A stretch of 61,117 nt of DNA from a virus (IMGVR_UViG_3300030330_002046:1-61117), one strand, 5' to 3'; counted from the stretch's first letter, positions 713 through 60,440 are shown. Made by a program: numbers and translations. The notes: a model not told the origin generated them from the sequence alone.

Positions 713-746
713 AAGGTAGTCCGTTCAAACGGACTGCCTTTTTTTT
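713..746 (+). terminator. Intrinsic terminator built on the 16-bp palindrome
   Basis: aaggtagtccgtt-ca-aacggactgcctt followed by a T run. Confidence 0.85.
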
Positions 747-757
747 ATGCCTAATAA

Positions 758-789
758 TTTGGTTGTAAACTAAAAATAAACTATATTTG
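758..789 (+). promoter_or_regulatory. Bacteroidota sigma70-type promoter
   Basis: TTTG at 758-761 and TATATTTG (TAnnTTTG) at 782-789, upstream of ATG 818. Confidence 0.75.
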
Positions 790-817
790 TACTATTAATT
801 AACTAAAATAAAACACA

Positions 818-1057
818 ATGGCAACACTATTAAAATCAGACGGCTCTGAATCAGAGTACAAAGACATCACATTATCAGGAATGCAAAAGGCAGTTGGTGG
901 CTACATCGAACTTGTTCATCTACCAAAAGGCAAGATGCTCGTGGTAAACGAAGATGGTTTAAACTTAAAGTTACCTTACAATCCGAGAGCGTCCCAATTA
1001 TCACAGAGACATTTAGTTGGGGACATATTATTAATGAATCAAAACGAGATAGACTAA
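818..1057 (+). CDS. DUF3846-like protein
   Basis: MQKAVGGYIELV...VVNEDGL..KLPYNPRAS...LVGD pattern. Confidence 0.7.
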   Translation: MATLLKSDGSESEYKDITLSGMQKAVGGYIELVHLPKGKMLVVNEDGLNLKLPYNPRASQLSQRHLVGDILLMNQNEID

Positions 1058-1200
1058 TGAATATAACTATAATAGCAGTGCTTTTACCTTTGTGTATCAT
1101 AGCACTATACGTTGCTTACCAAATGGTAAAGTATAATCCAAACAATCCTAACACTACAATACCTTTAGAAGATGAAGAAGATAACAGACTTGATGATTAA
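1057..1200 (+). CDS. Small membrane protein (47 aa; not in ORF track)
   Basis: TAATG coupling; MNITIIAVLLPLCIIALYVAYQMV hydrophobic helix then acidic tail. Confidence 0.55.
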   Translation: MNITIIAVLLPLCIIALYVAYQMVKYNPNNPNTTIPLEDEEDNRLDD

Positions 1201-1516
1201 AGATATTAATGCTGAGAAAGTTGCAAAACATTCTGACAGACATTACATTCAAGATTGTCAAAAGATATTAGACAATTTAGAAAACCTCGATAAGAAAACA
1301 TTTATAAACACCGGTAGAATTATGACTGCCGGACATTTACGAGATAGGTATCCGGATAAAGATTTACAAGAGGGTACTCGTTCCGTATGCAGATACTTGG
1401 GTGGCTTTTGTATAGAGTTTATAAACGAGCGAGATTTTTATTGGGATGGAAATAAAAGCCAAGACATCCGGGAAGTAGAAGATAAACTATTTAATCATAT
1501 TAAAAATTTAATTTAA
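1172..1516 (+). CDS. Hypothetical protein
   Basis: 114-aa ORF in operon orientation. Confidence 0.7.
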   Translation: MKKITDLMIKDINAEKVAKHSDRHYIQDCQKILDNLENLDKKTFINTGRIMTAGHLRDRYPDKDLQEGTRSVCRYLGGFCIEFINERDFYWDGNKSQDIREVEDKLFNHIKNLI

Positions 1517-1521
1517 GAAAA

Positions 1522-1821
1522 ATGAAAAGAGAAGTTTTTGAAAAGTACAGTGTTGAAATCGCTGAGCTATTTAGAATGGACAGAGAAGATATGTTCAAGA
1601 AATCTAAGAAAAGAGAAATTGTAGATGCAAGACATCTGCTATACTACTTATGTGCTACAAGACCAATGAGATTAAAATACATATCAACATTTATGAAAGA
1701 AAATGGATACGATATATCTCATTCATCAATCATTCATGGAATAAAATGTGTTGAAGATAAAGTGCAATCAGATAAAGACTATACTAAAATAATTAAAAAC
1801 CTAAACCTATGCGTACTTTAA
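1522..1821 (+). CDS. DnaA domain IV-like HTH DNA-binding protein
   Basis: KSKKREIVDARHLLYYLC...DISHSSIIHGIKCVE resembles Bac_DnaA_C (R.R.I..AR..AMYL...RDHTTVIH). Confidence 0.7.
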   Translation: MKREVFEKYSVEIAELFRMDREDMFKKSKKREIVDARHLLYYLCATRPMRLKYISTFMKENGYDISHSSIIHGIKCVEDKVQSDKDYTKIIKNLNLCVL

Positions 1822-2216
1822 ACGATGTATTTAATGAAGCTAAAGAGGATACGTTCTGTGCTACATTGGATACCAAATATGTTGAGGCACGCTTAGTCTT
1901 TGGAGTAAAGATAGTAAGAGATAGAGAGACCGGAGTAGTGGAGATATTCAACACTCAAAAAGGAGGGGATTTTTATCAGGAAATAGATATAGATGAGTAC
2001 GATTATTTCTTAGAAAAAAGTTGGAGGTTTGGGGTTTATAGAGTATCTTTGTCTAACTATAGTAGAAAACTTATTAACATTGAAGCATCTATAAAAGATG
2101 TTATTAATGATAAGCAAAACAAAAAACAATTAGACTCCTTACAATCAAGGAGGTTAAACATAATGAATCGTTACACTAAAATTACATCTAAATTAAATTT
2201 ATTACACAATGAGTAA
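1809..2216 (+). CDS. Hypothetical protein
   Basis: 135-aa ORF overlapping both neighbours. Confidence 0.7.
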   Translation: MRTLNDVFNEAKEDTFCATLDTKYVEARLVFGVKIVRDRETGVVEIFNTQKGGDFYQEIDIDEYDYFLEKSWRFGVYRVSLSNYSRKLINIEASIKDVINDKQNKKQLDSLQSRRLNIMNRYTKITSKLNLLHNE

Positions 2217-2796
2217 AAACAATTACACTACGTTAGCGTCCATATCTGTTAAAGATAAAGTTGAACGCAAAGGAAACTTCGATTATTTATCTTGGGCTAA
2301 TGCTTGGCATATGCTTAAGACAATCCATCCAAAAGCTCAAAGAGTTGTATACGAGTCCGTTCAAACGGAATTAAATTACTTCTCAGATGGCAGTACTGCA
2401 TATGTAAAGGTCGGTATTATCATAGATGATGTTGAGCATATTGATTACCTACCGGTAATGGATTACAGAAACAATTCTATACCATTAGAGAAGATTACAT
2501 CAATGGATGTGAATACTGCTATCCAAAGGTCTACTGCTAAGGCTATTGCGATGCACGGGTTAGGTCTATCTCTATGGACGGGTGAGGATGTACCACAGAT
2601 GGTTACAAAGAAGCCTACACCTAAGACAAAAGCCACAACGAAGATTAGTCTTGATATAGGTGATGAGAATTGGGCTAAGGTTATGAAATACATTGGTGCT
2701 AACAAGCAGTTAGGTCTGACTCAGATAGTTAAGAATCTTGAAACCAAATACAAGATGAAGGCTACTGTTAAGAAAGAGATTGAAAAAGCAATGTAA
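2209..2796 (+). CDS. Sak3/DUF1071-like single-strand annealing protein (Rad52 superfamily)
   Basis: YLSWANAW, LPVMDYRN, AKAIAMHGLGL motifs; next to an exonuclease. Confidence 0.8.
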   Translation: MSKNNYTTLASISVKDKVERKGNFDYLSWANAWHMLKTIHPKAQRVVYESVQTELNYFSDGSTAYVKVGIIIDDVEHIDYLPVMDYRNNSIPLEKITSMDVNTAIQRSTAKAIAMHGLGLSLWTGEDVPQMVTKKPTPKTKATTKISLDIGDENWAKVMKYIGANKQLGLTQIVKNLETKYKMKATVKKEIEKAM

Positions 2797-2797
2797 G

Positions 2798-3532
2798 ATG
2801 AAAGACGTAATCGAAAGACTTAAAGATGATGCTGAATATTATGGAGGGATAGGTAAAAACTATCTCTCTAATTCAGATATTGGTGCATTATTAAACAATC
2901 CAAAAGAGTTTGGGGTTACACGTAAAGACAATCAAAACTTTGCTAAAGGTAGATTGTTTCATCAGTTGATACTTGAGCCTGAAAAAGCTAAGGATGTTGT
3001 AACATTAGATGTAGCCTCAAGAAACACAAAGAAGTATAAGGACTTTGTTGCTGACAACGAGTTAGATTTTTGTCTACTTGATAAAGAGGTTGTAGAAATA
3101 AAGTCTTGGGTTGAGGCTATAAATTCTAACATGGATATGTTTGATATGATTTACGATGAGACTAACGAATATGAGGTCCCAAGCGTAAAAGAAATAAAGG
3201 GTATGATGTGGAAAGGTAAAGCAGACATTGTAGCTTCTGATTGCTTGATAGATTTAAAAACTACCGGTGACATAAAGAAGTTTGGTAAGTCAGCTTATCT
3301 TTATAACTACGATAGCCAAGCATATATTTACCAAGAGTTGTTTGGTAAGCCCTTAATATTTATCGCTATAGATAAGACGACAAAGATGCTTGGAATATTC
3401 AGACCGACTGAGGAGTTTATCAGAAGGGGTGAAGGCAAGGTAGAAAAAGCAATAGAGGTTTATAATAAATTCTTTTCTGAAGATGCTGAGCTTACTATTG
3501 ATGACTACTATATTGATATGTACATTGATTAG
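2798..3532 (+). CDS. PD-(D/E)xK exonuclease (RecE/exonuclease VIII, DUF3799-like)
   Basis: LSNSDI, GRLFHQLILEPE, KGKAD...IDLKTT, YDSQAYIY; ATG 2798 preferred over TTG 2780. Confidence 0.8.
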   Translation: MKDVIERLKDDAEYYGGIGKNYLSNSDIGALLNNPKEFGVTRKDNQNFAKGRLFHQLILEPEKAKDVVTLDVASRNTKKYKDFVADNELDFCLLDKEVVEIKSWVEAINSNMDMFDMIYDETNEYEVPSVKEIKGMMWKGKADIVASDCLIDLKTTGDIKKFGKSAYLYNYDSQAYIYQELFGKPLIFIAIDKTTKMLGIFRPTEEFIRRGEGKVEKAIEVYNKFFSEDAELTIDDYYIDMYID

Positions 3533-3621
3533 TCCGTTTGAACGGACACACACAGATGGCTTTTGTAGATGTTCCCTCAGTCTACATTAGCCTTTATAAA
3601 GAGGGATAAATATTTTTTATT

Positions 3622-3885: not shown

Positions 3886-3891
3886 AACTAC

Positions 3892-3922
3892 AAAGGGGAG
3901 CGTAAAAGCTCCTCTTTTTTTT
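3892..3922 (+). terminator. Intrinsic terminator
   Basis: aaaggggagc-gtaaaa-gctcctcttt followed by a T run. Confidence 0.8.
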
Positions 3923-4080: not shown

Positions 4081-4082
4081 CA

Positions 4083-10026: not shown

Positions 10027-10096
10027 CAATCTCTCTATGATTGTTATAAGTTTTTTGTTTGCTATGAGGAGTCCGTTTAAACGGACTCCTTTTTTT
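10027..10096 (+). ncRNA. Candidate ~70-nt trans-antisense sRNA against the leader of the gene at 60441
   Basis: 10046-10062 is the exact reverse complement of 60426-60442; ends in palindrome hairpin plus T run. Confidence 0.6.
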
Positions 10097-16300: not shown

Positions 16301-18198
16301 TGTTTAGGAGTTGGGTCGTTATTAATAGTAAAATTTACGGTGTTATTAACAGGGTAGTTGCCTTCACCATCATTAGTTTTTTTTATTTGATTATCTCTTT
16401 CTTTGCTAAATTCACTTATATATTTACTAACCTCTATTGGACCCTCAACAGTTACACTTGTTAGTAATAACCCGTCTTTTGAAAACGTATTAATTTTATA
16501 TGTACCATTAGGCTGAGCCTCAGCTTTTATGTCAAAAACTTTATTGAAAATTTCTTGTCTAGGTAAATTACTTTTTAGACCTGAAATTTCTTGCATAACT
16601 TTTTCAATTAAAGTTATAGGTGTATTTGCTCTATCTATAACACCCTCTAAATATTTTCGAGCTGCTTTAGGATTAAGCTCACCGCTTTCAATCTTTTTAT
16701 TTATATCAGTAAGTAAAGACCAAGCTTGCTCTTTTTCAGCTTCATTAAACTCTGTAAATTGTTTATTAAAAACAGACTTACCTTGAGCTATCTTAGACGC
16801 TAAACCAACTGCTCTAAAACCTATAACATATTTTAAAGCATCAGCCATACCATCTTTAAAAGACTCTGCGGTAAGTTCACCCTTAGGATTTTTAAGAGTT
16901 GGAGTAGTTGCGTTAATATAACCAAATGTACCTACCTCACCACCAAAACCAAATGACTCACCTACTGCACTTAATATCCTAGAATCATTCAAACCTCTTG
17001 ACCCTAAAACACCTGTAACACCTTTTTGTGAAACACTCTTAATTCCATCTGTTTTTAAGGCTGTACCTAGTCTAGGTATTTGCCTAGCAACTTGACCTAT
17101 TAAACCTAACCCTACACCAAGACCATAACCTTGTGAAAACGCTTCAGGAGATTGAGTGAAGTCTACATTTTCTATACCCCCTAATTCTTCTACTTGGGTT
17201 TGAAAATTTTTTGCAGTTTCAAAAAAACCGAACTTAGAACCTGCTTTATCTAATTGATTAACAACTTTAGGTAGCTGTTCTTGAACTATTCTTGATGCAA
17301 CTTCAGGTTTCATTCCTCTCTTAACTAAAGCATCAACGGTGTATTTACCTGCTCCTAGGATTGGTAGTTTTGGTAAAACCTTTGATGCACCTTTAACTAT
17401 AGCACCTCCAACTCCAACCTCAGGCATAACAAAAAAGTCTAAGACTGTGCTTAAAACACCTGTAACAAATTCATTAGTATCTCCATCCTTATAATCTGTT
17501 ATATTAAACATTGGCTCTGTAGTATACTTGTCTGCTGTAGGAATTATGGGTTCATCTTTACCCGTATACACAGGACCTGAAACAGGACCGGGAGTAGCAC
17601 CACTACTAGCTATCATTCTTCCAATAAGACCTGTAAAAGAATCATCATAAGATTTCTCTAAAGTTCTTGGTATTGTTAATAAATCCTCTTCATCTGCTTC
17701 TTGAGAATAAAGCTGAGGAGTTTTTTTCCAATCCTCTAAAGAAGGAACAGAAACATCACCTGCTTCTATTGCTTTACCATAAATGCTTTGATATAATTGC
17801 TCGTCTAACTCTGTTGGCGTTAATTCTCTTTCAACAGGTTCGTCCGTTTGAACGGACTTAGATATAACCTCTAAAGCTTTTTCTTTTGTTATACCACTTT
17901 CATCAGGACTTATTGTCTCGGAAACATCCGAAGAGATAACTTCTTCCTGCTCTGTCGGTGTAACAGATTCCATAACATCCTCTTGAGAAATAGAAACGGA
18001 CTCGTCTTTTTTTTTTACACCAACAAGTGTTGAAAATTCTTCTATAGACTTTTTGTATCCTTGTTCTTTAAATAAAGCATACGAGTCATTTAAAGCGTCA
18101 GGGTTTGTGTTTATAAGATTTACATATTCATCAAAAGATTTAGTATAACCTTTCTGTTTAAATAATTCGTAAGAATCCTTTAATGCCTGCTCGTTCAT
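10321..18198 (-). CDS. Giant (2625 aa) putative internal virion/ejection protein with zincin-like domain
   Basis: Last gene of the structural block; HEMGH...EEAMA metallopeptidase-like motif; coiled coils. Confidence 0.65.
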   Translation of the reverse strand: MNEQALKDSYELFKQKGYTKSFDEYVNLINTNPDALNDSYALFKEQGYKKSIEEFSTLVGVKKKDESVSISQEDVMESVTPTEQEEVISSDVSETISPDESGITKEKALEVISKSVQTDEPVERELTPTELDEQLYQSIYGKAIEAGDVSVPSLEDWKKTPQLYSQEADEEDLLTIPRTLEKSYDDSFTGLIGRMIASSGATPGPVSGPVYTGKDEPIIPTADKYTTEPMFNITDYKDGDTNEFVTGVLSTVLDFFVMPEVGVGGAIVKGASKVLPKLPILGAGKYTVDALVKRGMKPEVASRIVQEQLPKVVNQLDKAGSKFGFFETAKNFQTQVEELGGIENVDFTQSPEAFSQGYGLGVGLGLIGQVARQIPRLGTALKTDGIKSVSQKGVTGVLGSRGLNDSRILSAVGESFGFGGEVGTFGYINATTPTLKNPKGELTAESFKDGMADALKYVIGFRAVGLASKIAQGKSVFNKQFTEFNEAEKEQAWSLLTDINKKIESGELNPKAARKYLEGVIDRANTPITLIEKVMQEISGLKSNLPRQEIFNKVFDIKAEAQPNGTYKINTFSKDGLLLTSVTVEGPIEVSKYISEFSKERDNQIKKTNDGEGNYPVNNTVNFTINNDPTPKQPTTDLASIDEQITTDDVEELSPEVKTEVDAIKADENIDLSELDEITTTEKAPESVQSNIEKIEEFYNGKIEELQEEITVEESNTKEGIAEIKAKIADVRKDKSLSKDDKLESIEELKAELEDFKQEQKDIIGTYKDDIRVAKSEMKSDIKQAKKSVPEFRRKPLTTLTESQNTETDAKEAQILETLNERADNFINVSEIKETEATPSQINIEALNQRTGGNFKEIDIKTLDNVPVMLNISDQLTTGNYNPNVTDVNQNYSVTNPFTGNEIINLKGGLGFSSVKGHENIAWASVTQDKVNNQKNSAIKIYENNKPKFDKLWAEGVLPDGHIPMVIVKMGNDSMKSNEALIRVIKDNLASFPAKNKIAALKALNEELSNLKDKYKKVVDTGLTMRGKKASGLTIKNYSKFIGEIQDVQDMIKQSKAKSIEDILSTESLQSLKGITSVAQITNLITTGNFNVLKKQPGKSKKPVLKALYGDNPSQQDINKFNIKKIADVITEPELANVPQRSAFMVTSIDVKNPQTIRTNHPNYPFGPKGQVLGILKQPISIVDLIPSAYNNVALGIAEEITGERGSRSDAARLVQTIPVQAGLVNKEFLGTPIGVNPDSRFIDFLQRSFPETNMVVDAETFNSVMERDGVKKYLKDGDVIYGVTANGEIFINPDVHNSSSALYNTAIHEMGHVWTKYIKQSAKGKKIYNRGAELVKETDTYKEQLEIFNGDEVKAVEEAMAILIGNKGESITNQATKSKWIDWLMGLWDYIKSQFKQFKDLTNKEIQDLTLDQFLGTALRDILGGKPIKLTPKERAAMKADVAFKKASKSNKQVVEKVVTNLRNAGYSEVGIREILKEKGVNSKLINEIITEAPKVKKVKKEFDADVFIKEARDANFTDERIADYLTQKKGMKAKDVKEMLSVGLGDLPKSFANIKGGSKAGLKLFKRVNKFRDGLVSKNKSTKKDKLSEAQITDKTIEFLEKQPEYKAEAETYTLKGETKRRLGLSTIQAEMITEFQKMNPLRQTQAMRTKVETAKRDIRERARGARNLKETQNILKSFIRKTIPSTQYTKSEVIDLINKVTRADRASINNLINEVFEFATSKNVSILDGKITDILNLKTEELYSGRIKGVKVDSETAKLIQFIIKNRLTEDATAEQIELSEQVQRKEIEKLSENPEENISEIMAKTSLININNSLLMENIDPSKVDALDIALENLQALVEKGKSELARIIEAQKAEYDRQFELAYSEITGEKIDMSKDNKEELLRKSKRKLASEQNKKAVQGKAKAFADNILEGTRDFFYSAESLQGLIDAISKMPGELFGGKLQELVTDKVDASSRVFKERRLMYNDVLTKKFQEIYGKGWKKIVRSNAMFSTPIESLGITYSQNQLYYLYNQFKDPANRPTFKRMWGEDFMDVAKEIESKLDPKVKEFADWQVNEYFPSLYDYYNEVYKKIYRTDMPWNQFYAGRIYREGITPEALDLLGENSVVQTSVGGSSTKARVNNTNEIMAMDGTDALMTYLNDMEFFAAYAENIRDINKIFTNPIIKNSIEANHGKRLYTFIQDRIKQIANQGSKNPQATKFINAMNNVFITTRVALSPVIFLKQMTSTLTYASDIGFKNYLEYAVKNKKEMRKVFNEIKDNSVYMKDRGAENIMKVIESYTDSAMKQFVPTETKDYFINAMMWFVRTGDRGAIYLGGMPLYSYHKAQFKKNNPKATEQEAIDYAIIKFEKATKTTQQSADIQDKDFFQTGDALVRGLNAFKTTPKQYLRREIMSIRNLYRKFKAKDKNAGKGSINDNLREFFMFHMVMPAFFQWVSSGFPGLLTDFDDEDEVDMLRAVLLGNLNALFILGEVIEGIADYATDKPWAADVGKQVGIVELASSILKKAQRAKQVKDPELKAAYQKQLYSELLTLLRIPAPQLLRMKENAVKISEEDMDTGELILRLFNYSDYAIGKKKPTNKQRSMTKAQMKEDLPELYDVLYNSEGAKELKAVEKELQDLMDIE

Positions 18199-31227: not shown

Positions 31228-31257
31228 AAAGAGAGTCCGTTTAAACGGACCCTCTTT
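31228..31257 (-). terminator. Terminator-like hairpin after the capsid gene, built on the 16-bp palindrome
   Basis: aaagagagtccgtt-ta-aacggaccctcttt. Confidence 0.7.
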
Positions 31258-39389: not shown

Positions 39390-39651
39390 ATCCTTGTTTA
39401 GTATCAGTTTTGTTTCGACCTTTTGATTCTATTAAAAGATTTTCTTCTTCTAAATCAATACGCTTTAATATTTCAAAAGCATCAAATATTGCAAGCTTTT
39501 TTGTTGCTGCAGCATTTTTTAATCTATCTGCTGCTAATTCATCTTCAGGGTCAGGTTTTATAATTTCTTCCTTAGCAACTTTTATAAGTTGAGATACAGC
39601 TCTACGACCTGCTTTTATTATTTCTTCTTTTAATTCTTTAGATGAACTCAT
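39367..39651 (-). CDS. Possible terminase small subunit
   Basis: 94-aa helical protein overlapping the TerL start; positional only. Confidence 0.4.
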   Translation of the reverse strand: MSSSKELKEEIIKAGRRAVSQLIKVAKEEIIKPDPEDELAADRLKNAAATKKLAIFDAFEILKRIDLEEENLLIESKGRNKTDTKQGFAERRSK

Positions 39652-40214
39652 GACATTTTAATTGTTATATTACTGTCATACATTCTATATAAAACTTGAC
39701 CATCTACATAAAACTCGTATTCACTATCAGGTTGAAATATTACTGTATCACCTGACTTTATTCCTTGAGATTTTAAATAATCATTAGGATAAACTATTTC
39801 TCCTGTCAAAGGCTCATACCTACCACTTTTAGAAAGAAAGCTTTCTTTTTTTTCTATAGGTTTTACAAAACAATACTTATCAAAAGTAATCCAATCATTA
39901 TCTTTTTTGTATAAAAAAAATTGACCTTCATCTATAAAAAATAAATTATCCTTAAAGTAACTTTTACCACTTTGTCTTCTTCCTTTCATATCATTATAAA
40001 ATTTAAAAACATTGTGATGAACTAAAAGAATATCTCCTTTACTAATAGGTCCTGAATAATTTATTGGAGTTTCTACTACAACAGCTTCTCTGTTAGAAAA
40101 CTTATGGTCTTCTTCAGAAGTACTTACAACAAACTCAATACCACCTATTGACTTTGTGTTTGTATACCTTTTACCTTGTAAAGGCTCTACTATAAAACTA
40201 TATGGAGATTTCAT
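39648..40214 (-). CDS. Tandem GroES-like co-chaperonin domain protein
   Basis: Two repeats of FIV.P...(A/G).VV...I..GD.(L/V)(L/I) with mobile-loop-like segments. Confidence 0.6.
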   Translation of the reverse strand: MKSPYSFIVEPLQGKRYTNTKSIGGIEFVVSTSEEDHKFSNREAVVVETPINYSGPISKGDILLVHHNVFKFYNDMKGRRQSGKSYFKDNLFFIDEGQFFLYKKDNDWITFDKYCFVKPIEKKESFLSKSGRYEPLTGEIVYPNDYLKSQGIKSGDTVIFQPDSEYEFYVDGQVLYRMYDSNITIKMS

Positions 40215-52152: not shown

Positions 52153-52809
52153 TTAGTATCCTGTTAAAAGTTTTAATACATCGTCTATAGCTTTGTTTCT
52201 ATGGTTGTCTTCTAGTATAACTTTAAACACATAGTCGCTACCTTTTATTTTATGAACATCGTCAATGGCTGAGTTAAGCTCTGTAGATAAATCAATCTGC
52301 TGATTGTCTCCACAGAATATCATTATAGAGTCTTTACCTAACCTACCTAAAGCCATTCTTAGCTGTGCCTTAGTTAAGTTTTGAAACTCATCTACTATAA
52401 CTACAGCACCGTCAAATGTTCTGCCTCGAAAGTGGGCAAGAGAGACTAGCTCAATTTCCTCTTGCTCCACCATCTTGGCTATCTTATCAGGTTTGTTGTA
52501 TACCTTACGCATATTAGACATGATAGGTACAAGCCAAGGTTCTAGTTTTTCTTTTTCAGTACCGGGCAGAAACCCATTATCTTCAGTCGCAACAGTTGGT
52601 CTTGTAATAATTATCTTGTTATACTGCCTTTTAAAGAACATATCTAAAGCCACTTGAACAGCAAGCAATGTTTTACCTGACCCTGCCTTACCTACAACAA
52701 AGCTATATGGATGCTTTATCATTTGCTCCTTAGCTCTTTTTTGTTCCTCAGACAAGGATATGTTAAACTTCACACTACCCTTTGGTGGCTTCTTAGATTT
52801 ATTTTCCAT
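52153..52809 (-). CDS. phoH: PhoH-family ATPase
   Basis: GKAGSGKT, IIITRP, GFLPG, FRGRTF, VDEFQN, GDNQQID. Confidence 0.92.
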   Translation of the reverse strand: MENKSKKPPKGSVKFNISLSEEQKRAKEQMIKHPYSFVVGKAGSGKTLLAVQVALDMFFKRQYNKIIITRPTVATEDNGFLPGTEKEKLEPWLVPIMSNMRKVYNKPDKIAKMVEQEEIELVSLAHFRGRTFDGAVVIVDEFQNLTKAQLRMALGRLGKDSIMIFCGDNQQIDLSTELNSAIDDVHKIKGSDYVFKVILEDNHRNKAIDDVLKLLTGY

Positions 52810-54388
52810 TACTTCTCATCATGGTAATAATAGCATTAGTGCTAAGTAGTGTAACAGCAACTGACACAGCATTTTGAAGAGCGTTCTTAGTAACTTTCAT
52901 TGGGTCAATAATACCCATCTTCATCATATTACCATACTTATCATTTTTTACATCATAACCCCAACCCTTTGAAAAGTCATCAGAGTATATTGAGTTGTAA
53001 TTTAATCCTGCATTTTCAAGTATTGTTACAATAGGTGATAGTAAAGATACTTTAAGTATCTCATATGCACACTTCTTCTCATCAGACCAATTATCTTTTA
53101 CAACTAATTTACGTGATATGTTTTCAAGAGCTACTCCTCCTCCCGGAAGTATACCCTCAACAGTAGCAGAACGAACAGCACATACAGCATCATCAATACG
53201 GTCATACAGTTCTTTTTGCTCTAGGTCAGTTTTACCTCCTGCATATATAACACCTACACCTCCTGTCAAAGAAGCTATACGTGATAGTATAAACTCACGG
53301 TCAGCTTTTTTATCAGTTATATCATGTGCATCACGAAGCTCAGATACTCGCTTATCAATATCATCTTTAGATACTACACTCTCATCTTTAATAATAATAG
53401 ATGAATCTTTACCTACTATAATTTTTTTAGCCTTACCTAAATCTTTAGGTAGTATCAGACTAAGGTCGTCACCTGTCTTTTCAGAAAAATATGTAGCACC
53501 AACAGATAGTGCAATATCATTCATCAACTCATGTTGCTTGTAACCAAAACTCGGTGGTGATATAACACATATCTTCAAACCGTTCTTCATAACATTAGCA
53601 GCAAGAGTGTTTAACACGTTAGAAGATGCGTTAGCTATAATCAATAACTTTTCACCCTTATTAATAATTGGTTTTAAAACATTCTCAATCTGTAATACAT
53701 TTGTTATCTCAGCATCACTAACAAGAATATTTACATCCTCATAAATACACTCGTCCTTTTTGTGATTATTAATAAATAAATTACTAGAATAACCACGGTC
53801 AACCTTAATACCGTTAGTAACCTCAAAATATGTTTCAGAAGACTGAGAGTTCTCAACCGTAACTATTCCATCTGTACCAACTGAATTATATACTTTAGAT
53901 ATTATATTACCTATATAGGAATCATTGTTGGCAGAAATAGTAGCAACATCCTCAAGTTTATTATTATCAACAGGCTTACTCATCTTCTTAAGATTTTCCA
54001 CTACAACCTTTGTAGCTTCAACTAGCTCTCTAAGAACTAATGTCTTATTCATACCCGACTTTATCATCTCATTACCCGCAAGAGATAAAGCTTGCGATAA
54101 CACGATTGCAGTAGTAGTACCATCACCGGCATTAGTCGCTGTCTTTTCCGAAGCTTCCTTTACAATACGTACTGCAAGATTTTCCACAGAGTCAAGCAAG
54201 CTAATAGACTTAGCAACTGTAACACCATCTTTAGTAACGGTGATTCCATGAGTATGATTTTCTGATTCAATTAGCACTGTGTTACCTCTAGGACCGAGAG
54301 TGCTCTTTACTGCGTTAGTAATTTTTTCTAATCCGCTGAAAAGTTTTTTTCTACCCTCATCAGCAAAGTGTAATTCTTTTGGATTCAT
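52799..54388 (-). CDS. groEL: Chaperonin GroEL-like
   Basis: TLGPRG, TKDGVTVAK, AGDGTTTA, ILPGGG, GIIDPMKV. Confidence 0.95.
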   Translation of the reverse strand: MNPKELHFADEGRKKLFSGLEKITNAVKSTLGPRGNTVLIESENHTHGITVTKDGVTVAKSISLLDSVENLAVRIVKEASEKTATNAGDGTTTAIVLSQALSLAGNEMIKSGMNKTLVLRELVEATKVVVENLKKMSKPVDNNKLEDVATISANNDSYIGNIISKVYNSVGTDGIVTVENSQSSETYFEVTNGIKVDRGYSSNLFINNHKKDECIYEDVNILVSDAEITNVLQIENVLKPIINKGEKLLIIANASSNVLNTLAANVMKNGLKICVISPPSFGYKQHELMNDIALSVGATYFSEKTGDDLSLILPKDLGKAKKIIVGKDSSIIIKDESVVSKDDIDKRVSELRDAHDITDKKADREFILSRIASLTGGVGVIYAGGKTDLEQKELYDRIDDAVCAVRSATVEGILPGGGVALENISRKLVVKDNWSDEKKCAYEILKVSLLSPIVTILENAGLNYNSIYSDDFSKGWGYDVKNDKYGNMMKMGIIDPMKVTKNALQNAVSVAVTLLSTNAIITMMRSNGK

Positions 54389-54856: not shown

Positions 54857-55310
54857 GGGGTAAAGGTATAAAAAAAATTAGATATATAGAACTAAAAGGT
54901 TATGTGTTGCGTGCAGCGTGCCGGTCGCCCTCAGAAAACCGATTTTGTGCTGAGGGGTGGGGGTTCGTTTTCGCTCGGTGCAATCGGATTTTTTGCCGTT
55001 TTACTGCCGTAAGTCTACAAGCCTTGCAGTACGTTTGGTGCAGTGTTTCGCATTCACGTTTGTAAGGCTCATATTAACCATGATTAACTGCTTTGTCCGT
55101 TCAAACGGACTGCATTCCCTTGTAAACAAAGGCTCTCAGAGATTCGAGATGCAGAGAGAGGATGCACAGCCCCTCCCCGACCATCACCACACCAAACTTT
55201 TCTTGGGGATTTGTCCCGTCTACATCTCAAGTATATACTGAGATTAGACAAAAGATGTAAAAAAAATGAAAATAAATGCGTTTAGCTATTGTATTGTACT
55301 AGAATTAAAC

Positions 55311-55380: not shown

Positions 55381-55995
55381 ATGAGACAAATTAATCCAAT
55401 TTTCGAAGAATTGTTAGGAAACAATTGTAATGAGTTCAATGGTGCATTGACGTTAGTAACTGAGTTACAAGACTCAGAGAAGAAGACGTTTGATAAGCAA
55501 ATCAAATTGGCTCACAAGATTTACAAAACATTCGAGTATTTCAAATCAGCCGAATGTAAGCAACAGATGGATTACATTGGTGTAGTGATGACTACCGAAG
55601 AATTCCACAAGCAAATATTCGGATACAACAAATCATTCTTTTACGACATGGTTAAAGTTGGTAAGCTACGTGATGAGTCTAATGACACTATCACTAAGTA
55701 CAAGCGAGAATGTACGAAGTTAGAAAACCAAAACGATAAGACTGCTTCGAGAAGCATCAAGAATCTACTCAAGTACGCTAAGGCAGTTGAGACTGATGGC
55801 GATGATGCTGAGGTTGAATCTACATCTACTACTCTGATGACGTTCGCTATCAAAGGCGATATATTCGATGATGGCAAAGGCGTTTCTATGCGTTTGACTG
55901 CTGACGGACAGATTCATATCAGTGGCGATGAGGATAAGATTCCTCCAATGGTTACTGCATCGTTTAATGAGATGAGAACATCACTAAATTCATAG
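55381..55995 (+). CDS. Hypothetical early protein
   Basis: 204-aa first gene of the + arm. Confidence 0.8.
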   Translation: MRQINPIFEELLGNNCNEFNGALTLVTELQDSEKKTFDKQIKLAHKIYKTFEYFKSAECKQQMDYIGVVMTTEEFHKQIFGYNKSFFYDMVKVGKLRDESNDTITKYKRECTKLENQNDKTASRSIKNLLKYAKAVETDGDDAEVESTSTTLMTFAIKGDIFDDGKGVSMRLTADGQIHISGDEDKIPPMVTASFNEMRTSLNS

Positions 55996-56062
55996 GTTAA
56001 CTGACGAGTCTTCAATAGACGAAACTTGAGTCCGTTTAAACGGACGGACTTGAGTCTTAACC
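55995..56062 (+). ncRNA. Type I hammerhead ribozyme HHR1 (cleavage after C56056)
   Basis: GGTTAA CTGACGA GTCT-tcaat-AGAC GAAA CTTGAGTCC...GGACTTGAG TC TTAACC. Confidence 0.93.
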
Positions 56063-56080
56063 AATAAAAAACAAATAGTT

Positions 56081-56263
56081 ATGACAATTACAATTCAAAA
56101 CGCAAACGGAATCAAATTATGCTCATTCGATGTATGTGCTGAGTACGGATACGAGCAATTCATCCTTGACAATTCTCTTCAGGGTTGTAAGGTAATCAAT
56201 GGAAATCATGAGATTGACATGATATACCCAAATTCAGATGAAATTATAATACAATTAGCTTAA
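56081..56263 (+). CDS. Small hypothetical protein
   Basis: 60 aa; ATG 24 nt after the HHR1 cut site. Confidence 0.65.
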   Translation: MTITIQNANGIKLCSFDVCAEYGYEQFILDNSLQGCKVINGNHEIDMIYPNSDEIIIQLA

Positions 56264-56309
56264 TAAATTAACCATGTCCGTTTAAACGGACTACAAAAAC
56301 CAAATAGTT

Positions 56310-57272
56310 ATGATACAAGGAATTAATTATGCCGTTGAGAACAACCCTAACAGAGGGAGAATGTTACAATACCATGAGGCGAGTAGAATCGGTCTACCAT
56401 TCAGAAAGCTAAACCATACAACACATGAGCGTGATTTGACTCATTTACCGAGAAATACACGTGATTTGACTACCTTTACTAATGATGATGGTGCATTTCA
56501 GTCAAAGTTTGCGATAGGCTTTGAGATTGAGAAGAATAGCTTTCATCGTGGAGCAGTCAAAGAATATCCATTATTCAGTCATTTCGAGTACGATTCATCA
56601 TGTGGAGTTGAAGCAGTGACTAACTTGCTACCATTAGTGGACAAGTCAGTTTGGCGTAACAAGGTGCTTGGTATGTTCTCTGAAGCAAGTAAGATTATTG
56701 AAGATAGATACTCACCATCAAATCAAAGATGTGGAGGTCACATTACTCTTTCTTGTGTGGGTATGAGTGGACAAGACTTGGCTGATAAGCTAAGACCATA
56801 TGCAGGTATTATCTACGCTCTATGGCGATTCAGATTACGCAATTCATATTGCTATGGGAACTTGATGATGAATACAAGTGATTATCATCGTGATTGGGTT
56901 GGACATACGTCAAGCAGTAAGTATCACGTATGTAAGATTATGGACGATAGAATTGAGTTCCGTCTACCTAACCGAGTGGAGTCAGTTAGAAGCATTAATC
57001 TTCGCTATAGGCTTATGTATGAGTTGATGAATTACGCTATCAACAAGCCAAACGGCACGTACGCAGGATTCATCAAGAAGATTAAATCTATACTCTTGTA
57101 TATGTACGATGGCAATGAAGCTAAAGTTGATGAGATTGTTACTCTATCAAAGGCATTCAGAAAGATGCTGATGAGTGGTAAGATTAACGCTGAGGTTGTG
57201 CAGTGGGTTGACCAATACAATAGGCTTACATCACACTACACTACGAGCTTACGCAGAGCTACTGAGAGATGA
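56310..57272 (+). CDS. Putative amidoligase (glutamine-synthetase-fold COOH-NH2 ligase, Amidoligase_2-like)
   Basis: IGFEIE, DSS...VEAVT, CGGHI, RIEFR in the expected order. Confidence 0.7.
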   Translation: MIQGINYAVENNPNRGRMLQYHEASRIGLPFRKLNHTTHERDLTHLPRNTRDLTTFTNDDGAFQSKFAIGFEIEKNSFHRGAVKEYPLFSHFEYDSSCGVEAVTNLLPLVDKSVWRNKVLGMFSEASKIIEDRYSPSNQRCGGHITLSCVGMSGQDLADKLRPYAGIIYALWRFRLRNSYCYGNLMMNTSDYHRDWVGHTSSSKYHVCKIMDDRIEFRLPNRVESVRSINLRYRLMYELMNYAINKPNGTYAGFIKKIKSILLYMYDGNEAKVDEIVTLSKAFRKMLMSGKINAEVVQWVDQYNRLTSHYTTSLRRATER

Positions 57273-57277
57273 TTTAT

Positions 57278-57305
57278 GGGTGTCCGTTCAAACGGACGGA
57301 TGCCC
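57278..57305 (+). other. Palindrome-containing hairpin just upstream of HHR2
   Basis: gggtgtcc-gttcaaacggac-ggatgccc. Confidence 0.75.
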
Positions 57306-57309
57306 TCTC

Positions 57310-57360
57310 TCCGTCCACAAGTGAGTGCTTGTGCTGATGAGACCAAAAGGTCGAAACGGA
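57310..57360 (+). ncRNA. Type III hammerhead ribozyme HHR2 (cleavage after C57315)
   Basis: TCCG TC CACAAGT-gagt-GCTTGTG CTGATGA GACC-aaaa-GGTC GAAA CGGA. Confidence 0.93.
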
Positions 57361-57379
57361 AACTTAAAACCAAATTATT

Positions 57380-57529: not shown

Positions 57530-57534
57530 AAACT

Positions 57535-57672
57535 ATGGAAGCAAAAGCAATAGTAATCGAGGGTAAGTTGGTAAGGATTGATGCCTGTGGAAATTTCTAC
57601 AGGCTCAATGGACTTGGCAAGTGGACTCAGATAAAACCAATGGAATTGTATGAGTTGATAACGCAAGGTTAA
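57535..57672 (+). CDS. Small protein (45 aa; not in ORF track)
   Basis: MEAKAIVIEGKLVRIDACGNFYRLNGLGKWTQIKPMELYELITQG; stop TAA lies in HHR3 stem I. Confidence 0.6.
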   Translation: MEAKAIVIEGKLVRIDACGNFYRLNGLGKWTQIKPMELYELITQG

Positions 57673-57730
57673 CTGATGAGAGTTTATTACTCGAAACATT
57701 AGTCCGTTCAGACGGACTGATGTCTTAATC
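57667..57730 (+). ncRNA. Type I hammerhead ribozyme HHR3 (cleavage after C57724)
   Basis: GGTTAA CTGATGA GAGT-ttatt-ACTC GAAA CATTAGTCCGTT-ca-GACGGACTGATG TC TTAATC. Confidence 0.93.
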
Positions 57731-57743
57731 AAAATTTAATATT

Positions 57744-57941
57744 ATGGAAACAATACAACAAGAGTACCTAAAGAAATTAGTAAACGCTACAGAGACTTAC
57801 ATAAAGAAGTTGGAAGAAGTTCAAGATGACGCACACTTTTATCAGGTAAAGGTAGAGGGTAGACATATCGTTCTTGACATCGCAGACGTAGTTGTTCACC
57901 TACACATGAAGTTAAAGAAGTATAAGGATTTGGTAGATTAA
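57744..57941 (+). CDS. Small hypothetical protein
   Basis: 65 aa; ATG 19 nt after the HHR3 cut site. Confidence 0.7.
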   Translation: METIQQEYLKKLVNATETYIKKLEEVQDDAHFYQVKVEGRHIVLDIADVVVHLHMKLKKYKDLVD

Positions 57942-57960
57942 AATATTATTCTTATCTTTG
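57929..57960 (+). promoter_or_regulatory. Internal Bacteroidota-type promoter
   Basis: TTTG at 57929-57932 and TATCTTTG at 57953-57960. Confidence 0.65.
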
Positions 57961-57992
57961 TCTAAATTTAGTTCAATTAAAACAAAAAAGCT

Positions 57993-58271
57993 ATGCTACA
58001 TTTAAGAGGTCAGTACAGACTGACAAACAAGAAGTACAAAATCAACAAGAAGTTTGATATTACTATCGGTTATGCATCTCCGAACAGAATAACAAAGTCT
58101 TTCGTTAACAGATGCAAGGAGGGAATGGCTGATGACATTGGTCAAGAGATTACTGAATGGTTACTTGATAACTTTTGGGTTAAAGAGTACGAGGAGATAA
58201 GAGAGTTAAGTAAATGCTCTCCTGATGTTGATGACATTAAAATAACAGTTCATGCAAATAAAATCAAATAA
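57993..58271 (+). CDS. Hypothetical protein
   Basis: 92-aa ORF. Confidence 0.65.
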   Translation: MLHLRGQYRLTNKKYKINKKFDITIGYASPNRITKSFVNRCKEGMADDIGQEITEWLLDNFWVKEYEEIRELSKCSPDVDDIKITVHANKIK

Positions 58272-58290
58272 CCAATTAAATTAAATTATT

Positions 58291-58467
58291 ATGAAAGAAC
58301 AAATCTATATGTTAGTTGAATTCAACGGAGAAAATGTACTCCCAAGATTTAGTGTAAGAGAAACTTTTAAAACTTTTGAAGAAGCGAAAGACAAGCTAAA
58401 TATGTTAAACCAAGAAGCTAAAGAAAATGGTTGGACACGAAATTATATTTTAACTAAATCATTATAA
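58291..58467 (+). CDS. Small protein (58 aa; not in ORF track)
   Basis: MKEQIYMLVEFNGENVLPRFSVRETFKTFEEAK...; shared leader taaccaattaaattaaattattATG. Confidence 0.65.
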   Translation: MKEQIYMLVEFNGENVLPRFSVRETFKTFEEAKDKLNMLNQEAKENGWTRNYILTKSL

Positions 58468-58475
58468 AATCAAAT

Positions 58476-58514
58476 ACTTGTGTCCGTTCAAACGGACGGA
58501 CATAAGTTTTAACC
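58476..58514 (+). other. Hammerhead remnant (stem III and 3-prime stem I only)
   Basis: acttgtgtcc...ggacataagt-t-ttaacc; no CTGANGA or stem II upstream. Confidence 0.7.
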
Positions 58515-58537
58515 AATTAAATTAAAATCAAATAATT

Positions 58538-58849
58538 ATGAGTAAGCTAGAAAAAAGTTTTCAGAAAGTACGTTACGTAGGTTGGGAGAGTTCAATGTCT
58601 CCTACGATAGAGCGTGAGAAAAAGACAATGCAATACCATGTTGGTTGGAACAAGGAGTCTAATCGTGGTTGGTTTGAAATCTACGATGTTGAGAGTGGTG
58701 GTGAGGACTACTACGCAGAGGGTGGGCTTGAGTTCACCGGCAAGGTCTTAGATGGATACGATGGTGTGTTTTCCTTAGACGATGAGGTTATTAAGTGCGT
58801 CAAGGGTTGGGGTGCTGATACAAAGGACATGGAAGGAATATTAAGTTAG
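58538..58849 (+). CDS. Hypothetical protein
   Basis: 103 aa; stop TAG overlaps HHR4. Confidence 0.75.
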   Translation: MSKLEKSFQKVRYVGWESSMSPTIEREKKTMQYHVGWNKESNRGWFEIYDVESGGEDYYAEGGLEFTGKVLDGYDGVFSLDDEVIKCVKGWGADTKDMEGILS

Positions 58850-58912
58850 GTTAACTGATGAGGATTAAGTATCCGAAACTTGAGTCCGTTGTAACGGACT
58901 CGAGTCTTAACC
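58849..58912 (+). ncRNA. Type I hammerhead ribozyme HHR4 (cleavage after C58906)
   Basis: GGTTAA CTGATGA GGAT-taagt-ATCC GAAA CTTGAGTCCGTT-gt-AACGGACTCGAG TC TTAACC. Confidence 0.95.
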
Positions 58913-58928
58913 AATTAAATTAAATATT

Positions 58929-59090
58929 ATGGGACAAATGAAAGAATTATTTATCTCGATGCAAGAGGGACTCATGCAAGGGATAGCAATCACGAATGCT
59001 CAGCGTGAGCGTCAGTTGGATGACGAGCATCAGATGAGCGTATCAAAAAAAGTAAAATCAAAAAACAAAACCAATGAAAGCAAACAATAA
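58929..59090 (+). CDS. Small protein (53 aa; not in ORF track)
   Basis: MGQMKELFISMQEGLMQG...; ATG 22 nt after the HHR4 cut site. Confidence 0.55.
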   Translation: MGQMKELFISMQEGLMQGIAITNAQRERQLDDEHQMSVSKKVKSKNKTNESKQ

Positions 59091-59334
59091 AATCATAGCA
59101 GAGTTTATGGGCGACAAGCCTAAAGAATTATTATACACAACATTGTACATAGATTATAGTTCGTCTTGGGACTTGCTTATGCCGGTCGTCCAAAAGATAG
59201 GCGATGAATACTACAACACACCATTTGATGAGACATACTCAAAACTTACAGAGCAATACGAAAACATTTGGACATTGGAAGATACGTACAATGCAGTTGT
59301 AGAGTTTATCAAAGAGCAAAACGAGATAGGTTAA
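59074..59334 (+). CDS. Hypothetical phage protein
   Basis: NKIIAEFMG...YSSSWDLLMPVVQKI...YNAVVEFIK; stop in HHR5 stem I. Confidence 0.75.
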   Translation: MKANNKIIAEFMGDKPKELLYTTLYIDYSSSWDLLMPVVQKIGDEYYNTPFDETYSKLTEQYENIWTLEDTYNAVVEFIKEQNEIG

Positions 59335-59392
59335 CTGATGAGGACTGAGTGTCCGAAACATTAGTCCGTTACAACGGACTGATGTCTTAACC
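59329..59392 (+). ncRNA. Type I hammerhead ribozyme HHR5 (cleavage after C59386)
   Basis: GGTTAA CTGATGA GGAC-tgagt-GTCC GAAA CATTAGTCCGTT-ac-AACGGACTGATG TC TTAACC. Confidence 0.95.
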
Positions 59393-59408
59393 AATTAAAT
59401 TTAATACT

Positions 59409-59792
59409 ATGGGATATTATAGTGAAGTGTACATAGCAGTACCAAAAAAAGCTGAAGCTGAAATGGACAAGGCAATGAATAGTAATAACTTACTTACTAA
59501 GCCTCAGTTTGAAACAAGTCCATCATTTAAAAAGTATGACCACATACAAAAGTGGTCAGAGTATAAAGATAATCAGAGAATTGAAACGTCAAGAGAACTT
59601 GTAATATACGAGGGATTTTGGCTCAAGTGGTATCCTGAGTACAAAGACGTTCAAGCAGTCACAAGCGTGGTTGAAAACCACGAAGATGATGGAGCGTGTA
59701 TCGTGTGCGTAGGCGAAGATGGTGCAGTCCATTCTAACACCGGAGAGTACGATGATGTATTCAATGTTTATGTAAAAGTAGAATTAACTTAA
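59409..59792 (+). CDS. Hypothetical phage protein
   Basis: MGYYSEV...WLKWYPEYKDV...VGED; ATG 22 nt after the HHR5 cut site. Confidence 0.75.
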   Translation: MGYYSEVYIAVPKKAEAEMDKAMNSNNLLTKPQFETSPSFKKYDHIQKWSEYKDNQRIETSRELVIYEGFWLKWYPEYKDVQAVTSVVENHEDDGACIVCVGEDGAVHSNTGEYDDVFNVYVKVELT

Positions 59793-59803
59793 ATTAAAAT
59801 CAG

Positions 59804-60325
59804 ATGAGTATAATTAATAACAAAAAAGATAGCGAAGACTATATTAAAAATCATACAACAACAGAATCTAAAATTATGGAAAACAAGACAATTGAATGGG
59901 GGTGGGAAAAAAGTCAGCCCTCAAACATGAGAAGCAAAGAACATCAAGCGTTCTTAATCAAGGAGTACAACAAGAATAGACCGGAGCATCTGCAAGTTAA
60001 AGATATGGCAGAGTTGAACAGAGCCTTGTTAGATACTGAGGTTAAGTATCTTGGTATGCGTAGCGTAACTATTACAGAGCGTAGAGTATACCATAAGGTT
60101 GGTAAGGTTACCATAGAGTTGCCTAAAGACTTACCATTAGACCAAACTGATGAGTGGTTGGAGAAGAATACTCAGAAGTGGGAACAAGAGTTGGACAATC
60201 AGTTTAATACTGCTAAGCTTGAGTTTGGAACCGGTGTTTTAGAATGTGATGGTATGTCATATGAAAGTGCAGACAGAGAGACAAGATACGATGTCAACGG
60301 AGAAAGCTTCGGAGGTCACGTCTAA
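59804..60325 (+). CDS. Hypothetical protein (start uncertain)
   Basis: 173-aa ORF; second plausible ATG at 59876. Confidence 0.7.
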   Translation: MSIINNKKDSEDYIKNHTTTESKIMENKTIEWGWEKSQPSNMRSKEHQAFLIKEYNKNRPEHLQVKDMAELNRALLDTEVKYLGMRSVTITERRVYHKVGKVTIELPKDLPLDQTDEWLEKNTQKWEQELDNQFNTAKLEFGTGVLECDGMSYESADRETRYDVNGESFGGHV

Positions 60326-60341
60326 AAAAAAGTACAATAAA

Positions 60342-60374
60342 ATTTGGTAGTGTCTAAATTTTGTTGTATATTTG
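60342..60374 (+). promoter_or_regulatory. Promoter of the GATase-GGCT gene
   Basis: TTTG near 60342-60345 and TATATTTG at 60367-60374. Confidence 0.7.
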
Positions 60375-60440
60375 TACAAATCAAATACAATTAATCAGAG
60401 GTCAGTCCGTTCAGACGGACTCCTCGCAAACAAAAAACTT

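Follow-up and report, generated by a model that had tools for sequence, protein, structure and literature searches.

A lineage-specific 16-bp palindrome repeated at ribozymes, terminators and coding sites in a family of marine phages

Genome organisation and copies of the palindrome

The phage record IMGVR_UViG_3300030330_002046, analysed over its whole length of 61,117 bp (hereafter the window; about 33% G+C), is a complete record in which a 16-bp palindrome, GTCCGTTNNAACGGAC, recurs at ribozymes, terminators and leaders and within genes. Comparison with related genomes indicates that this repeat belongs to a set of lineage-specific tags found across the family and is more than a reused hairpin; it is tentatively interpreted below as an RNA stem-loop tag read by a co-evolving factor. 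The ends of the record overlap by 92 bp inside a gene, which shows that the assembly is circular, and because the overlap is only 92 bp no copy of the palindrome is counted twice.

The genes are arranged in two blocks. The + strand block extends from about 54.9 kb across the record end to 10.0 kb and comprises small early genes, an amidotransferase-cyclotransferase fusion (glutamine amidotransferase with a gamma-glutamyl cyclotransferase-like domain, GATase-GGACT; 60441-61117 joined to 1-516, spanning the record ends), a DnaA_C-like helix-turn-helix (HTH) protein, Sak, a PDDEXK exonuclease, a primase-helicase, an SNF2-type helicase, and VRR-NUC, HNH and PDDEXK nucleases. The - strand block, from 10.3 to 54.4 kb, encodes the portal protein, large terminase, virion proteins, lysis proteins, GroES/GroEL, PhoH and a giant protein of 2625 aa.

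A motif count against shuffled sequence bears out the reuse proposed in the preliminary description: the window contains 13 exact copies and 16 with at most one mismatch, compared with means of 0.00 and 0.03 in shuffles, and relaxing the search to two mismatches adds no copies. The total of 15 given there has to be raised to 16, as a one-mismatch copy in the Sak gene at 2355 had been missed, while the positions that it listed are right. The copies and the ribozymes associated with them are as follows.

719..734, + strand: CA-centred copy tipping the intrinsic terminator that follows the GATase-GGACT gene; 12-pair stem (713-740), then a T run
2355..2370, + strand: copy with one mismatch (last base A) within the gene for the Sak single-strand annealing protein
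3532..3547, + strand: copy that overlaps the PDDEXK exonuclease gene's stop codon
7436..7451, + strand: copy within the SNF2/ResIII helicase gene, codons SPFERT
10071..10086, no strand assigned: terminator-tip copy between the convergent + and - blocks; 11-pair stem (10066-10091), then a T run
17842..17857, - strand: copy within the gene for the 2625-aa giant protein (SVQTD), reading CA on the sense strand
31235..31250, - strand: terminator-tip copy after a virion structural (capsid-like) gene; 13-pair stem (31257-31228)
55095..55110, + strand: copy in a G+C-rich non-coding region between the divergent gene blocks
55995..56062, + strand: type I hammerhead with palindrome 56030-56045 in stem III (Hammerhead_1 match of 33.5 bits, core, fold)
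56276..56291, + strand: copy between the stop of a 60-aa open reading frame (ORF) and the start of a 320-aa gene
57282..57297, + strand: copy in a hairpin directly 5' of the type III hammerhead
57310..57360, + strand: probable type III hammerhead, predicted cleavage after C57315 (core, predicted fold)
57667..57730, + strand: type I hammerhead with one-mismatch palindrome 57702-57717 at the stem III tip (core, fold)
58482..58497, + strand: leader copy which, by inspection, resembles the 3' half of a hammerhead cassette without the upstream catalytic core
58849..58912, + strand: type I hammerhead with palindrome 58884-58899, centre GT, at the stem III tip (core, fold z -5.5)
59329..59392, + strand: type I hammerhead with palindrome 59364-59379, centre AC, at the stem III tip (Rfam match in E-value mode, core, fold)
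60405..60420, + strand: one-mismatch copy capping a hairpin in the 5' leader, 20 nt upstream of the GATase-GGACT start

Three of the 16 copies lie within ORFs of at least 120 aa (the Sak, helicase and giant genes); the codons SPFERT and SVQTD had been read correctly in the preliminary description. Likewise, the three terminator stems that it proposed, at 719 and 10071 on the + strand and at 31235 on the - strand, are G+C-rich stem-loops with a T run at gene or operon ends, which is the usual form of intrinsic terminators. A different hairpin, without the palindrome, serves the terminator at 3892-3917. The 16-mer is all that is shared by copies in unrelated settings, such as terminators and the Sak, helicase and giant genes. 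The central dinucleotides in the window are CA, TG, TA, GT and AC, and an extra GGAC or GGAT follows the copies at 56030-56049, 57282-57301 and 58482-58501.

Hammerhead ribozymes

The palindrome lies at the tip of stem III in four type I hammerheads (copies 56030, 57702, 58884 and 59364), as originally described: the core CTGAYGAG..CGAAAC..GTC is present in 4/4 and a three-way fold is predicted for 4/4 (z -3.1 to -5.5). In the first of them (55995..56062) the extra GGAC permits a register-shifted stem of 14 pairs. No Rfam family matched the window at its gathering score. In E-value mode the best match was Hammerhead_1 (RF00163) at one locus, with 33.5 bits against a gathering score of 34, and weak matches to RAGATH-1-hammerhead were found at two type I loci; the Hammerhead_1 model handles a long stem III badly. 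The four cassettes share long flanking similarity (GGTTAACTGAYGAG .. GTCTTAACCAATTAAATT) and are thus duplicates of one another.

A probable type III hammerhead at 57310-57360, which was absent from the preliminary description, scores 18 bits with Hammerhead_3 (RF00008; gathering score 48.5). It follows directly after the hairpin carrying the 57282 copy, and the next start codon is about 20 nt downstream; all five hammerheads of the window lie about 20-45 nt before a start codon. Units of a hairpin plus a type III hammerhead, with or without a palindrome, occur in 10 of 21 relative genomes scanned, and in relatives this hairpin is tipped with their own palindromes. Genomes free of the palindrome retain such structures with other tips. 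In one of them (G018; relatives are referred to by G and L numbers) the stem III sequences of the four type I hammerheads are all unrelated to one another, and in three others (G013, G015 and G020) the type III hammerhead is preceded by ordinary hairpins of the GGGGAC type. Since these relatives keep hammerheads and hairpins with unrelated tips, the 16-mer is an added tip rather than a structural necessity.

Lineage-specific palindromes in related phages

A search of IMG/VR with the primase-helicase returned at least 249 related stretches, of which 80 loci were kept. The window belongs to a large family of marine phages of about 60 kb; copy counts across this family ignore shared ancestry and hence are not phylogenetically independent. 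In two genomes with 94-98% identity to the window there are 15 and 13 copies, most of them at corresponding positions, with changed centres and unchanged arms. Each distant lineage has its own repeated 16-bp palindrome, with prefixes such as GTCTG.., GTGTC.., GTCTC.. and GTTCAC... The types recorded are GTCTGTTNNAACAGAC, GTGTCTTNNAAGACAC (the commonest), GTGTCC..GGACAC, GTCTCT..AGAGAC, GTGTGT..ACACAC, ATCCGTTATAACGGAT, GTTCAC-N4-GTGAAC, GTACGGTCAACCGTAC and CTCCCAC..GTGGGAG. Between close relatives, types differ by single base-pair steps. Among 22 whole genomes, typed palindromes number 4-19 each and are found in both gene blocks, and six genomes have none; 39 of 123 classified copies in the family lie within ORFs of at least 120 aa.

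These lineage types occupy the same sites as the palindrome of the window, namely the tips of stem III in the hammerheads, the hairpin that precedes the type III hammerhead, the amidotransferase leader, the exonuclease stop, terminators and the same six helicase codons. The orthologous GATase-GGACT leader hairpin has a lineage-specific tip in L130, L134, L166, L169, L153 and L163, and relatives have their own palindromes at or just after the PDDEXK exonuclease stop. Loss of the in-gene copies from relatives had been named in the preliminary description as part of what would refute it, and this check speaks in its favour. L130 has a perfect copy of its lineage type at the same place in Sak as position 2355 of the window, and the helicase codons read SPFERT, GLFQQT, SVFKDT, SVFNDT, SLFEET or SVFEHT according to the palindrome of the lineage. 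A perfect palindrome of the own type was found at the helicase site in 21 of 70 non-redundant loci and a foreign type in none (0/70); six more perfect copies are in short loci that could not be typed. The palindrome is missing from this site in 17 typed loci, and in 26 untyped loci the codons are LDEFNxT-like and the length is unchanged. Since the site has the same length with and without the palindrome, the latter arose there by substitution and not by insertion. G002 has a diverged giant gene, in which the palindrome copy has other surroundings.

On the primase tree, types and absences of the palindrome are interleaved ('none' requires at least 13 changes, some of the 'none' loci being short), indicating that its turnover is fast. 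Mixed subtypes were found in G011 and G003. In G003, of the L129 lineage, all eight copies have the centre TTATAA or near variants of it instead of Y-R, and the outermost pair is A-T in four copies, G-C in one, G.T in two and A.C in one; judged by its sequence, this genome looks like a type switch caught midway. In G016, palindromes of the AGGAC/AGGTC type are clustered locally at intervals of about 45-70 bp (about 43.2-44.0 kb when aligned to the window), whereas the tags of the other genomes are dispersed.

A scan of bacterial genome contigs with one 16-mer gave at least 120 scattered single matches, a few genomes being hit several times, and no repeat family of Flavobacteriia was present among the matches listed. 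One Chloroflexota metagenome-assembled genome and one Microcoleus genome contain the same 16-mer on several contigs each, probably as unrelated repeats of their own. Full-text literature searches found no description of this palindrome element. What appears to be new, from these comparisons, is the family-wide presence of lineage-specific 16-mers at orthologous sites, together with other relatives that have the same hairpins without a 16-mer.

Sequence constraint and strand asymmetry

Within genomes the palindrome is highly uniform. In 76 sequences, 234 perfect copies of the local type were counted, with 17 one-arm changes and a single true compensated variant; one further compensated variant occurs in L137. 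Across lineages, positions 1, 2, 15 and 16 (GT..AC) and 7-10 (T-Y-R-A) are nearly constant, and positions 3-6 and 11-14 covary. Because the arms are uniform within a genome and differ between lineages, and orthologous sites switch together, we infer that the base sequence itself is read, and not pairing alone. The dinucleotides of the window are as the preliminary description gave them, but contrary to its reading the centre is not free: in the family it is constrained, with T7 in 250, Y8 in 257, R9 in 252 and A10 in 246 of 266 copies. The two A-to-G variants that had been taken to keep U-G pairing are the copies at 57702 and 60405, where the change is at position 10, within the predicted 4-nt loop.

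The centre is asymmetric with respect to transcription. On the sense strand, CA and TG occur in a ratio of 54:18 overall, 29:8 in intergenic copies and 25:10 inside ORFs of at least 120 aa. The bias towards CA is present in both oppositely oriented gene blocks and is balanced (3:4) at convergent junctions. If G.U pairs are permitted, the helices flanking intergenic copies are more often longer on the sense strand than on the other (21 versus 8, p=0.024), and in G011 three copies contain tandem G.U pairs of the sense strand. The bias of the centre, the longer flanking helices and the tandem pairs all speak for recognition as RNA. A 5-N6-5 layout is found in some lineages (GTGTC-N6-GACAC in G004/L166 is an example), and G008 has copies with hybrid half-sites, GTCTC being combined with GACAC.

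Proposed function and search for a reader

The explanation given most weight, though still a tentative one, is that the palindrome is a lineage-specific RNA stem-loop tag read by a co-evolving factor. The putative tag would consist of a stem of 5-6 bp (GUCCG(U)/(A)CGGAC in the window) closed by a U-Y-R-A centre and would be placed on phage transcripts. Between genes it would form the tip of pre-existing hairpins, i.e. type I stem III, the hairpin preceding the type III hammerhead, terminators and the 5'-leader hairpin. The tag would thereby come to lie at 3' ends generated by termination or self-cleavage and at some 5' ends, with a few fixed copies inside genes. A sequence-specific factor acting in trans would co-evolve with the tag; it may be a phage protein that binds the mRNA hairpin and controls how stable tagged transcripts are, how they are processed or how they are used. 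Recognition of a tag genome-wide is suggested by the versions that relatives have of it, each its own, at corresponding sites.

A number of results weigh against this reading. Copies inside genes, for which a role in RNA is not obvious, show no helix extension on the sense strand (5 versus 12). For the window copies 56030 and 57282 the predicted RNA fold is a longer, register-shifted helix in which the canonical loop is lost. The strand bias of the centre would also fit a lagging-strand template if replication starts at the divergent junction. The 16-mer is fully two-fold symmetric, including T7/A10 and Y8/R9, which a DNA dimer site explains more simply, and the mismatches in single arms (six sense-strand G.U, three A.C, three other) are a weak enrichment in too few cases to decide. 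Finally, no reader gene was found across the family genomes by presence/absence or by agreement with type. When agreement between palindrome type and nearest neighbour was compared over 11 families of the + block, none stood out, and none follows the type. The best association with presence is that of the first early gene (204 aa, HTH-like), which is found in 12 of 14 palindrome-bearing and one of six palindrome-free genomes. This association is confounded by phylogeny, a tail-fibre-like family tracks presence equally well, and the recognition-helix region of the 204-aa protein differs strongly between two genomes of the GTCCG type and does not follow type.

The tail-fibre-like family is a repeat-rich protein of 332 aa. 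The 204-aa, 114-aa, 320-aa and GATase-GGACT early genes co-occur, and all are present in the palindrome-free genome G013. The 204-aa protein has an invariant Gly and a conserved Ser in its HTH-like stretch. Its AlphaFold model is good (predicted local distance difference test score, pLDDT, 86), yet comparison of this model with the PDB gave no fold match with E <0.3, and in Atlas only unnamed viral clusters and chance-level leads to partition proteins were obtained.

Alternative explanations

The preliminary description preferred a site for a dimeric DNA-binding protein to an RNA hairpin, and proposed the HTH proteins at 1522, 8420 and 51265 as candidate binders. The part of this that is supported is that the arms are read in trans for their sequence; the free centre, the preference for DNA and the named binders are not supported. 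The DnaA_C-like HTH family (1522, 8420) is present in 14/14 palindrome-bearing and 6/6 palindrome-free genomes, and that of 51265 in 12/14 and 6/6, i.e. in both kinds of genome alike, while the preference for DNA is opposed by the 54:18 sense-strand bias of the centre and by intergenic helices extended through G.U pairs of the sense strand.

In a more general form, a duplex-DNA site of a homodimeric phage protein, acting as a global operator or roadblock like mycobacteriophage stoperators or plasmid KorB operators, is less probable than the RNA tag but is its main competitor. Since the whole 16-mer, centre included, is two-fold symmetric, a DNA-binding dimer remains a live rival. Dyad symmetry over all 16 positions, a flexible central Y-R step and covariation of positions 3-6 with 11-14 are what such a site would show, and the 5-N6-5 layout of some lineages and the hybrid half-sites of G008 agree with it. 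So do the retention of a specific sequence with almost no compensated variants, the in-gene copies without extended helices, and the first early gene with its HTH-like stretch, found mostly in palindrome-bearing genomes. In G004 and G012 the copies of the late block are roughly 7 kb apart, a spacing that also suits a DNA site. In this case the copies would lie where a palindrome is tolerated, namely at hairpin tips, gene junctions and permissive codons; in a variant of the idea, a hairpin in the lagging-strand template would be read by replication proteins. Stoperators provide a precedent, with 20-30 lineage-specific, transcription-oriented sites per phage genome (PMC6550527). A symmetric dimer site, however, does not predict a 3:1 bias of the centre on the sense strand in both blocks, nor the exact centring of intergenic copies on RNA hairpins whose flanks contain G.U pairs of the sense strand. 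The Pfam domain scan, which covered 57 ORFs of the window (20 other called ORFs being outside it), revealed no ParB-like, KorB or repressor family, and no HTH family tracks the presence or the type of the palindrome. A role in prophage silencing is unlikely because no integrase was seen among the scanned ORFs.

A bolder version of the RNA tag, and a doubtful one, is that the hairpin is a barcode which is built into ribozymes, terminators, leaders and even codons, marks phage transcripts or the genome, has a fast co-evolving reader and serves self-recognition as an RNA counterpart of stoperators. If this were true, the phage would be able to distinguish its messages from host ones and from those made by competing phages, and switches of the barcode would act like changes of immunity group.

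It is improbable that the palindrome is a selfish or gene-converted repeat resembling repetitive extragenic palindromes (REP), with no dedicated reader. Copies would stay uniform by ectopic conversion or template switching, with help from the phage's Sak/exonuclease recombination system, survive only where neutral, and act as junctions of cassette shuffling like promoter-early stem-loops (PeSLs). The placement wherever tolerated (existing hairpin tips, gene ends, a few codons), the interleaving of presence and type on the primase tree, the many relatives that do without the repeat and the subtype mixtures of G011 and G003 are consistent with this view, as are the Sak protein, PDDEXK exonuclease and VRR-NUC and HNH nucleases of the phage. 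In the early region, a segment with the 60-aa ORF, a palindrome copy and a repeated leader (56063-56309) is present in the window and G001 and absent from G002, where the 320-aa gene directly follows the hammerhead. The sequences indicate a cassette indel between repeated junctions, the cassette being bounded by copies and repeated leaders. Breakpoints between the window and G001/G002 lie near early-region copies, which are so dense there that this is little informative. On the other side, the helicase site was changed by substitution rather than insertion, 16 bp is very little homology for conversion and the flanks of the in-gene copies are unrelated, and the near-perfect uniformity of up to 19 copies would need strong homogenisation or selection. 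No REP-associated tyrosine transposase (RAYT/HUH) or other transposase family was found in the scanned ORFs, and the bacterial genome scan gave only scattered single hits among the matches listed.

An ordinary stable hairpin, copied together with duplicated regulatory cassettes and recognised by nothing specific to its sequence, would account for the duplicated hammerhead cassettes with their common long flanks. It is very improbable and, on the comparative data, already contradicted: copies in unrelated contexts share the 16-mer alone, orthologous sites change to the type of the lineage, stems show no compensated drift within a genome, and the terminator at 3892-3917 manages with another hairpin.

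The hairpins of CRISPR repeats resemble the tag in geometry, with a stem of 5-7 bp and a loop of 4-6 nt. A decoy or mimic of such a host element, in the style of RNA anti-CRISPRs, whose type would follow the host strain, is scarcely credible: solitary repeat mimics exist in phages (PMC10651486), and the tail-fibre-like family that tracks the palindrome hints at a host effect, but the element has only 16 nt and 13-19 copies, including fixed in-gene and ribozyme positions, and its types differ by single base-pair steps between close relatives.

Two further ideas were rejected. Against hairpin promoters of the N4-like or crAss-like kind, the giant protein has no Pfam, PHROG or PDB sequence match, and copies at terminators and in convergent positions cannot be promoters. 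Mimicry of the tRNA T-arm, suggested by the sense-strand loop UUCRAA, fails because the loop has 6 nt rather than 7 and about one third of the copies read UUUGAA or UUUAAA.

Comparison with known systems

In the lambda N/boxB system and in the histone mRNA 3' stem-loop with its stem-loop-binding protein, a short stem-loop of defined sequence has a dedicated protein reader. The histone element has 16 nt (a 6-bp stem and a 4-nt loop) and marks 3' ends. The tag proposed here would resemble these. Whereas their readers are known and each set of transcripts has one or two sites, the palindrome is present in 13-19 copies and shows rapid turnover between lineages.

REP and bacterial interspersed mosaic elements (BIME) are short, species-specific palindromes that occur in many copies after genes and are able to act as terminators or stabilisers of 3' ends. 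In contrast to REP/RAYT systems, no RAYT-like gene was found in the scanned ORFs, and the copies are perfect 16-mers at orthologous positions in a 61-kb phage. They also include substituted codons rather than insertions, and both the 3/16 copies of the window and the 39/123 of the family inside ORFs differ from the REP arrangement. As for ParB-parS and KorB-OB, which depend on an encoded ParB-family protein, no such protein was found in the 57 scanned ORFs.

The stoperators of Cluster A mycobacteriophages (L5, Bxb1) are described in PMC6550527 as present in tens of copies genome-wide, mostly outside promoters, oriented with transcription, and with a consensus that differs between lineages and varies with the reader. 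The palindromes are similar in being numerous (4-19 per genome), lineage-specific and sense-biased in their centre (54:18). Stoperators are asymmetric DNA sites of 13 bp to which the immunity repressor of temperate phages, a known protein, binds as a monomer. The present element differs in being palindromic over 16 bp and in having copies on RNA hairpin tips and in genes; the ORFs scanned include neither a repressor nor an integrase, and the evidence leans towards RNA. A cognate repressor would be expected to follow the type of its sites; no family does, and HTH families occur with and without palindromes.

PeSL cassettes of T4-type phages are repeated stem-loops between small early genes, at which gene cassettes are gained and lost (PMC2839356). 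The cassette indel bounded by palindrome copies in the window may be a similar case. PeSLs, however, are units of a promoter plus a terminator, are not uniform at the base level and are not built into ribozymes or coding sequence; lineage-wide switching, which characterises the palindrome, is not known to have been described for them.

Multiple hammerheads that flank genes and cleave polycistronic RNAs have been reported for phages and prophages (PMC3088659). Compared with these, the lineage-specific stem III tip common to the ribozymes is an extra layer. The palindrome set is a member of none of these groups (stoperators, REP, PeSL cassettes, phage operon hammerheads).

Very few phage systems are known to have lineage-specific cis sites in many copies that evolve together with a reader, and the same logic would apply here in an abundant family of uncultured marine phages. 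Tags fused to hammerheads and terminators offer a route to learning how polycistronic RNAs are processed and controlled in such phages, and might explain the sequence conservation of ribozyme stem III tips. For finding the reader, the matched and mismatched tags that nature provides as a series should be useful. Orthologous sites that switch together, with tag-free relatives that keep the hairpins, form a signature by which other viruses can be searched.

Other features of the genome

A type IX secretion sorting domain in one of the virion proteins makes a host in the Bacteroidota probable, as do the closest relatives that have names, distantly similar phages of Flavobacterium, Tenacibaculum and Polaribacter (Flavobacteriia). 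DNA sequencing runs containing the sequence are marine, and no RNA run was listed as containing it. A tRNA scan of the window found none.

GroEL-like and GroES-like chaperonins are encoded at 52799-54388 and 39648-40214, respectively, and a PhoH-like ATPase at 52153-52809. No recognisable domain was found in the 2625-aa giant protein. The 320-aa neighbour of the GATase-GGACT gene (56310-57272) has no family match; it has a GGH motif reminiscent of amidoligases. The early gene set containing GATase-GGACT and the 320-aa gene travels together in palindrome-bearing genomes.

A promoter-like box is visible by eye after the 719 terminator; a sigma-70 scan is not informative for this type of host. 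The island between the divergent blocks (54895-55250), which holds one palindrome copy, reaches 50% G+C against the genome mean of 33% and folds somewhat better than shuffled sequences (z -2.4), with no Rfam match. It may be a structured non-coding RNA or a replication origin, and a G+C-rich island occurs in the same region of most relatives.

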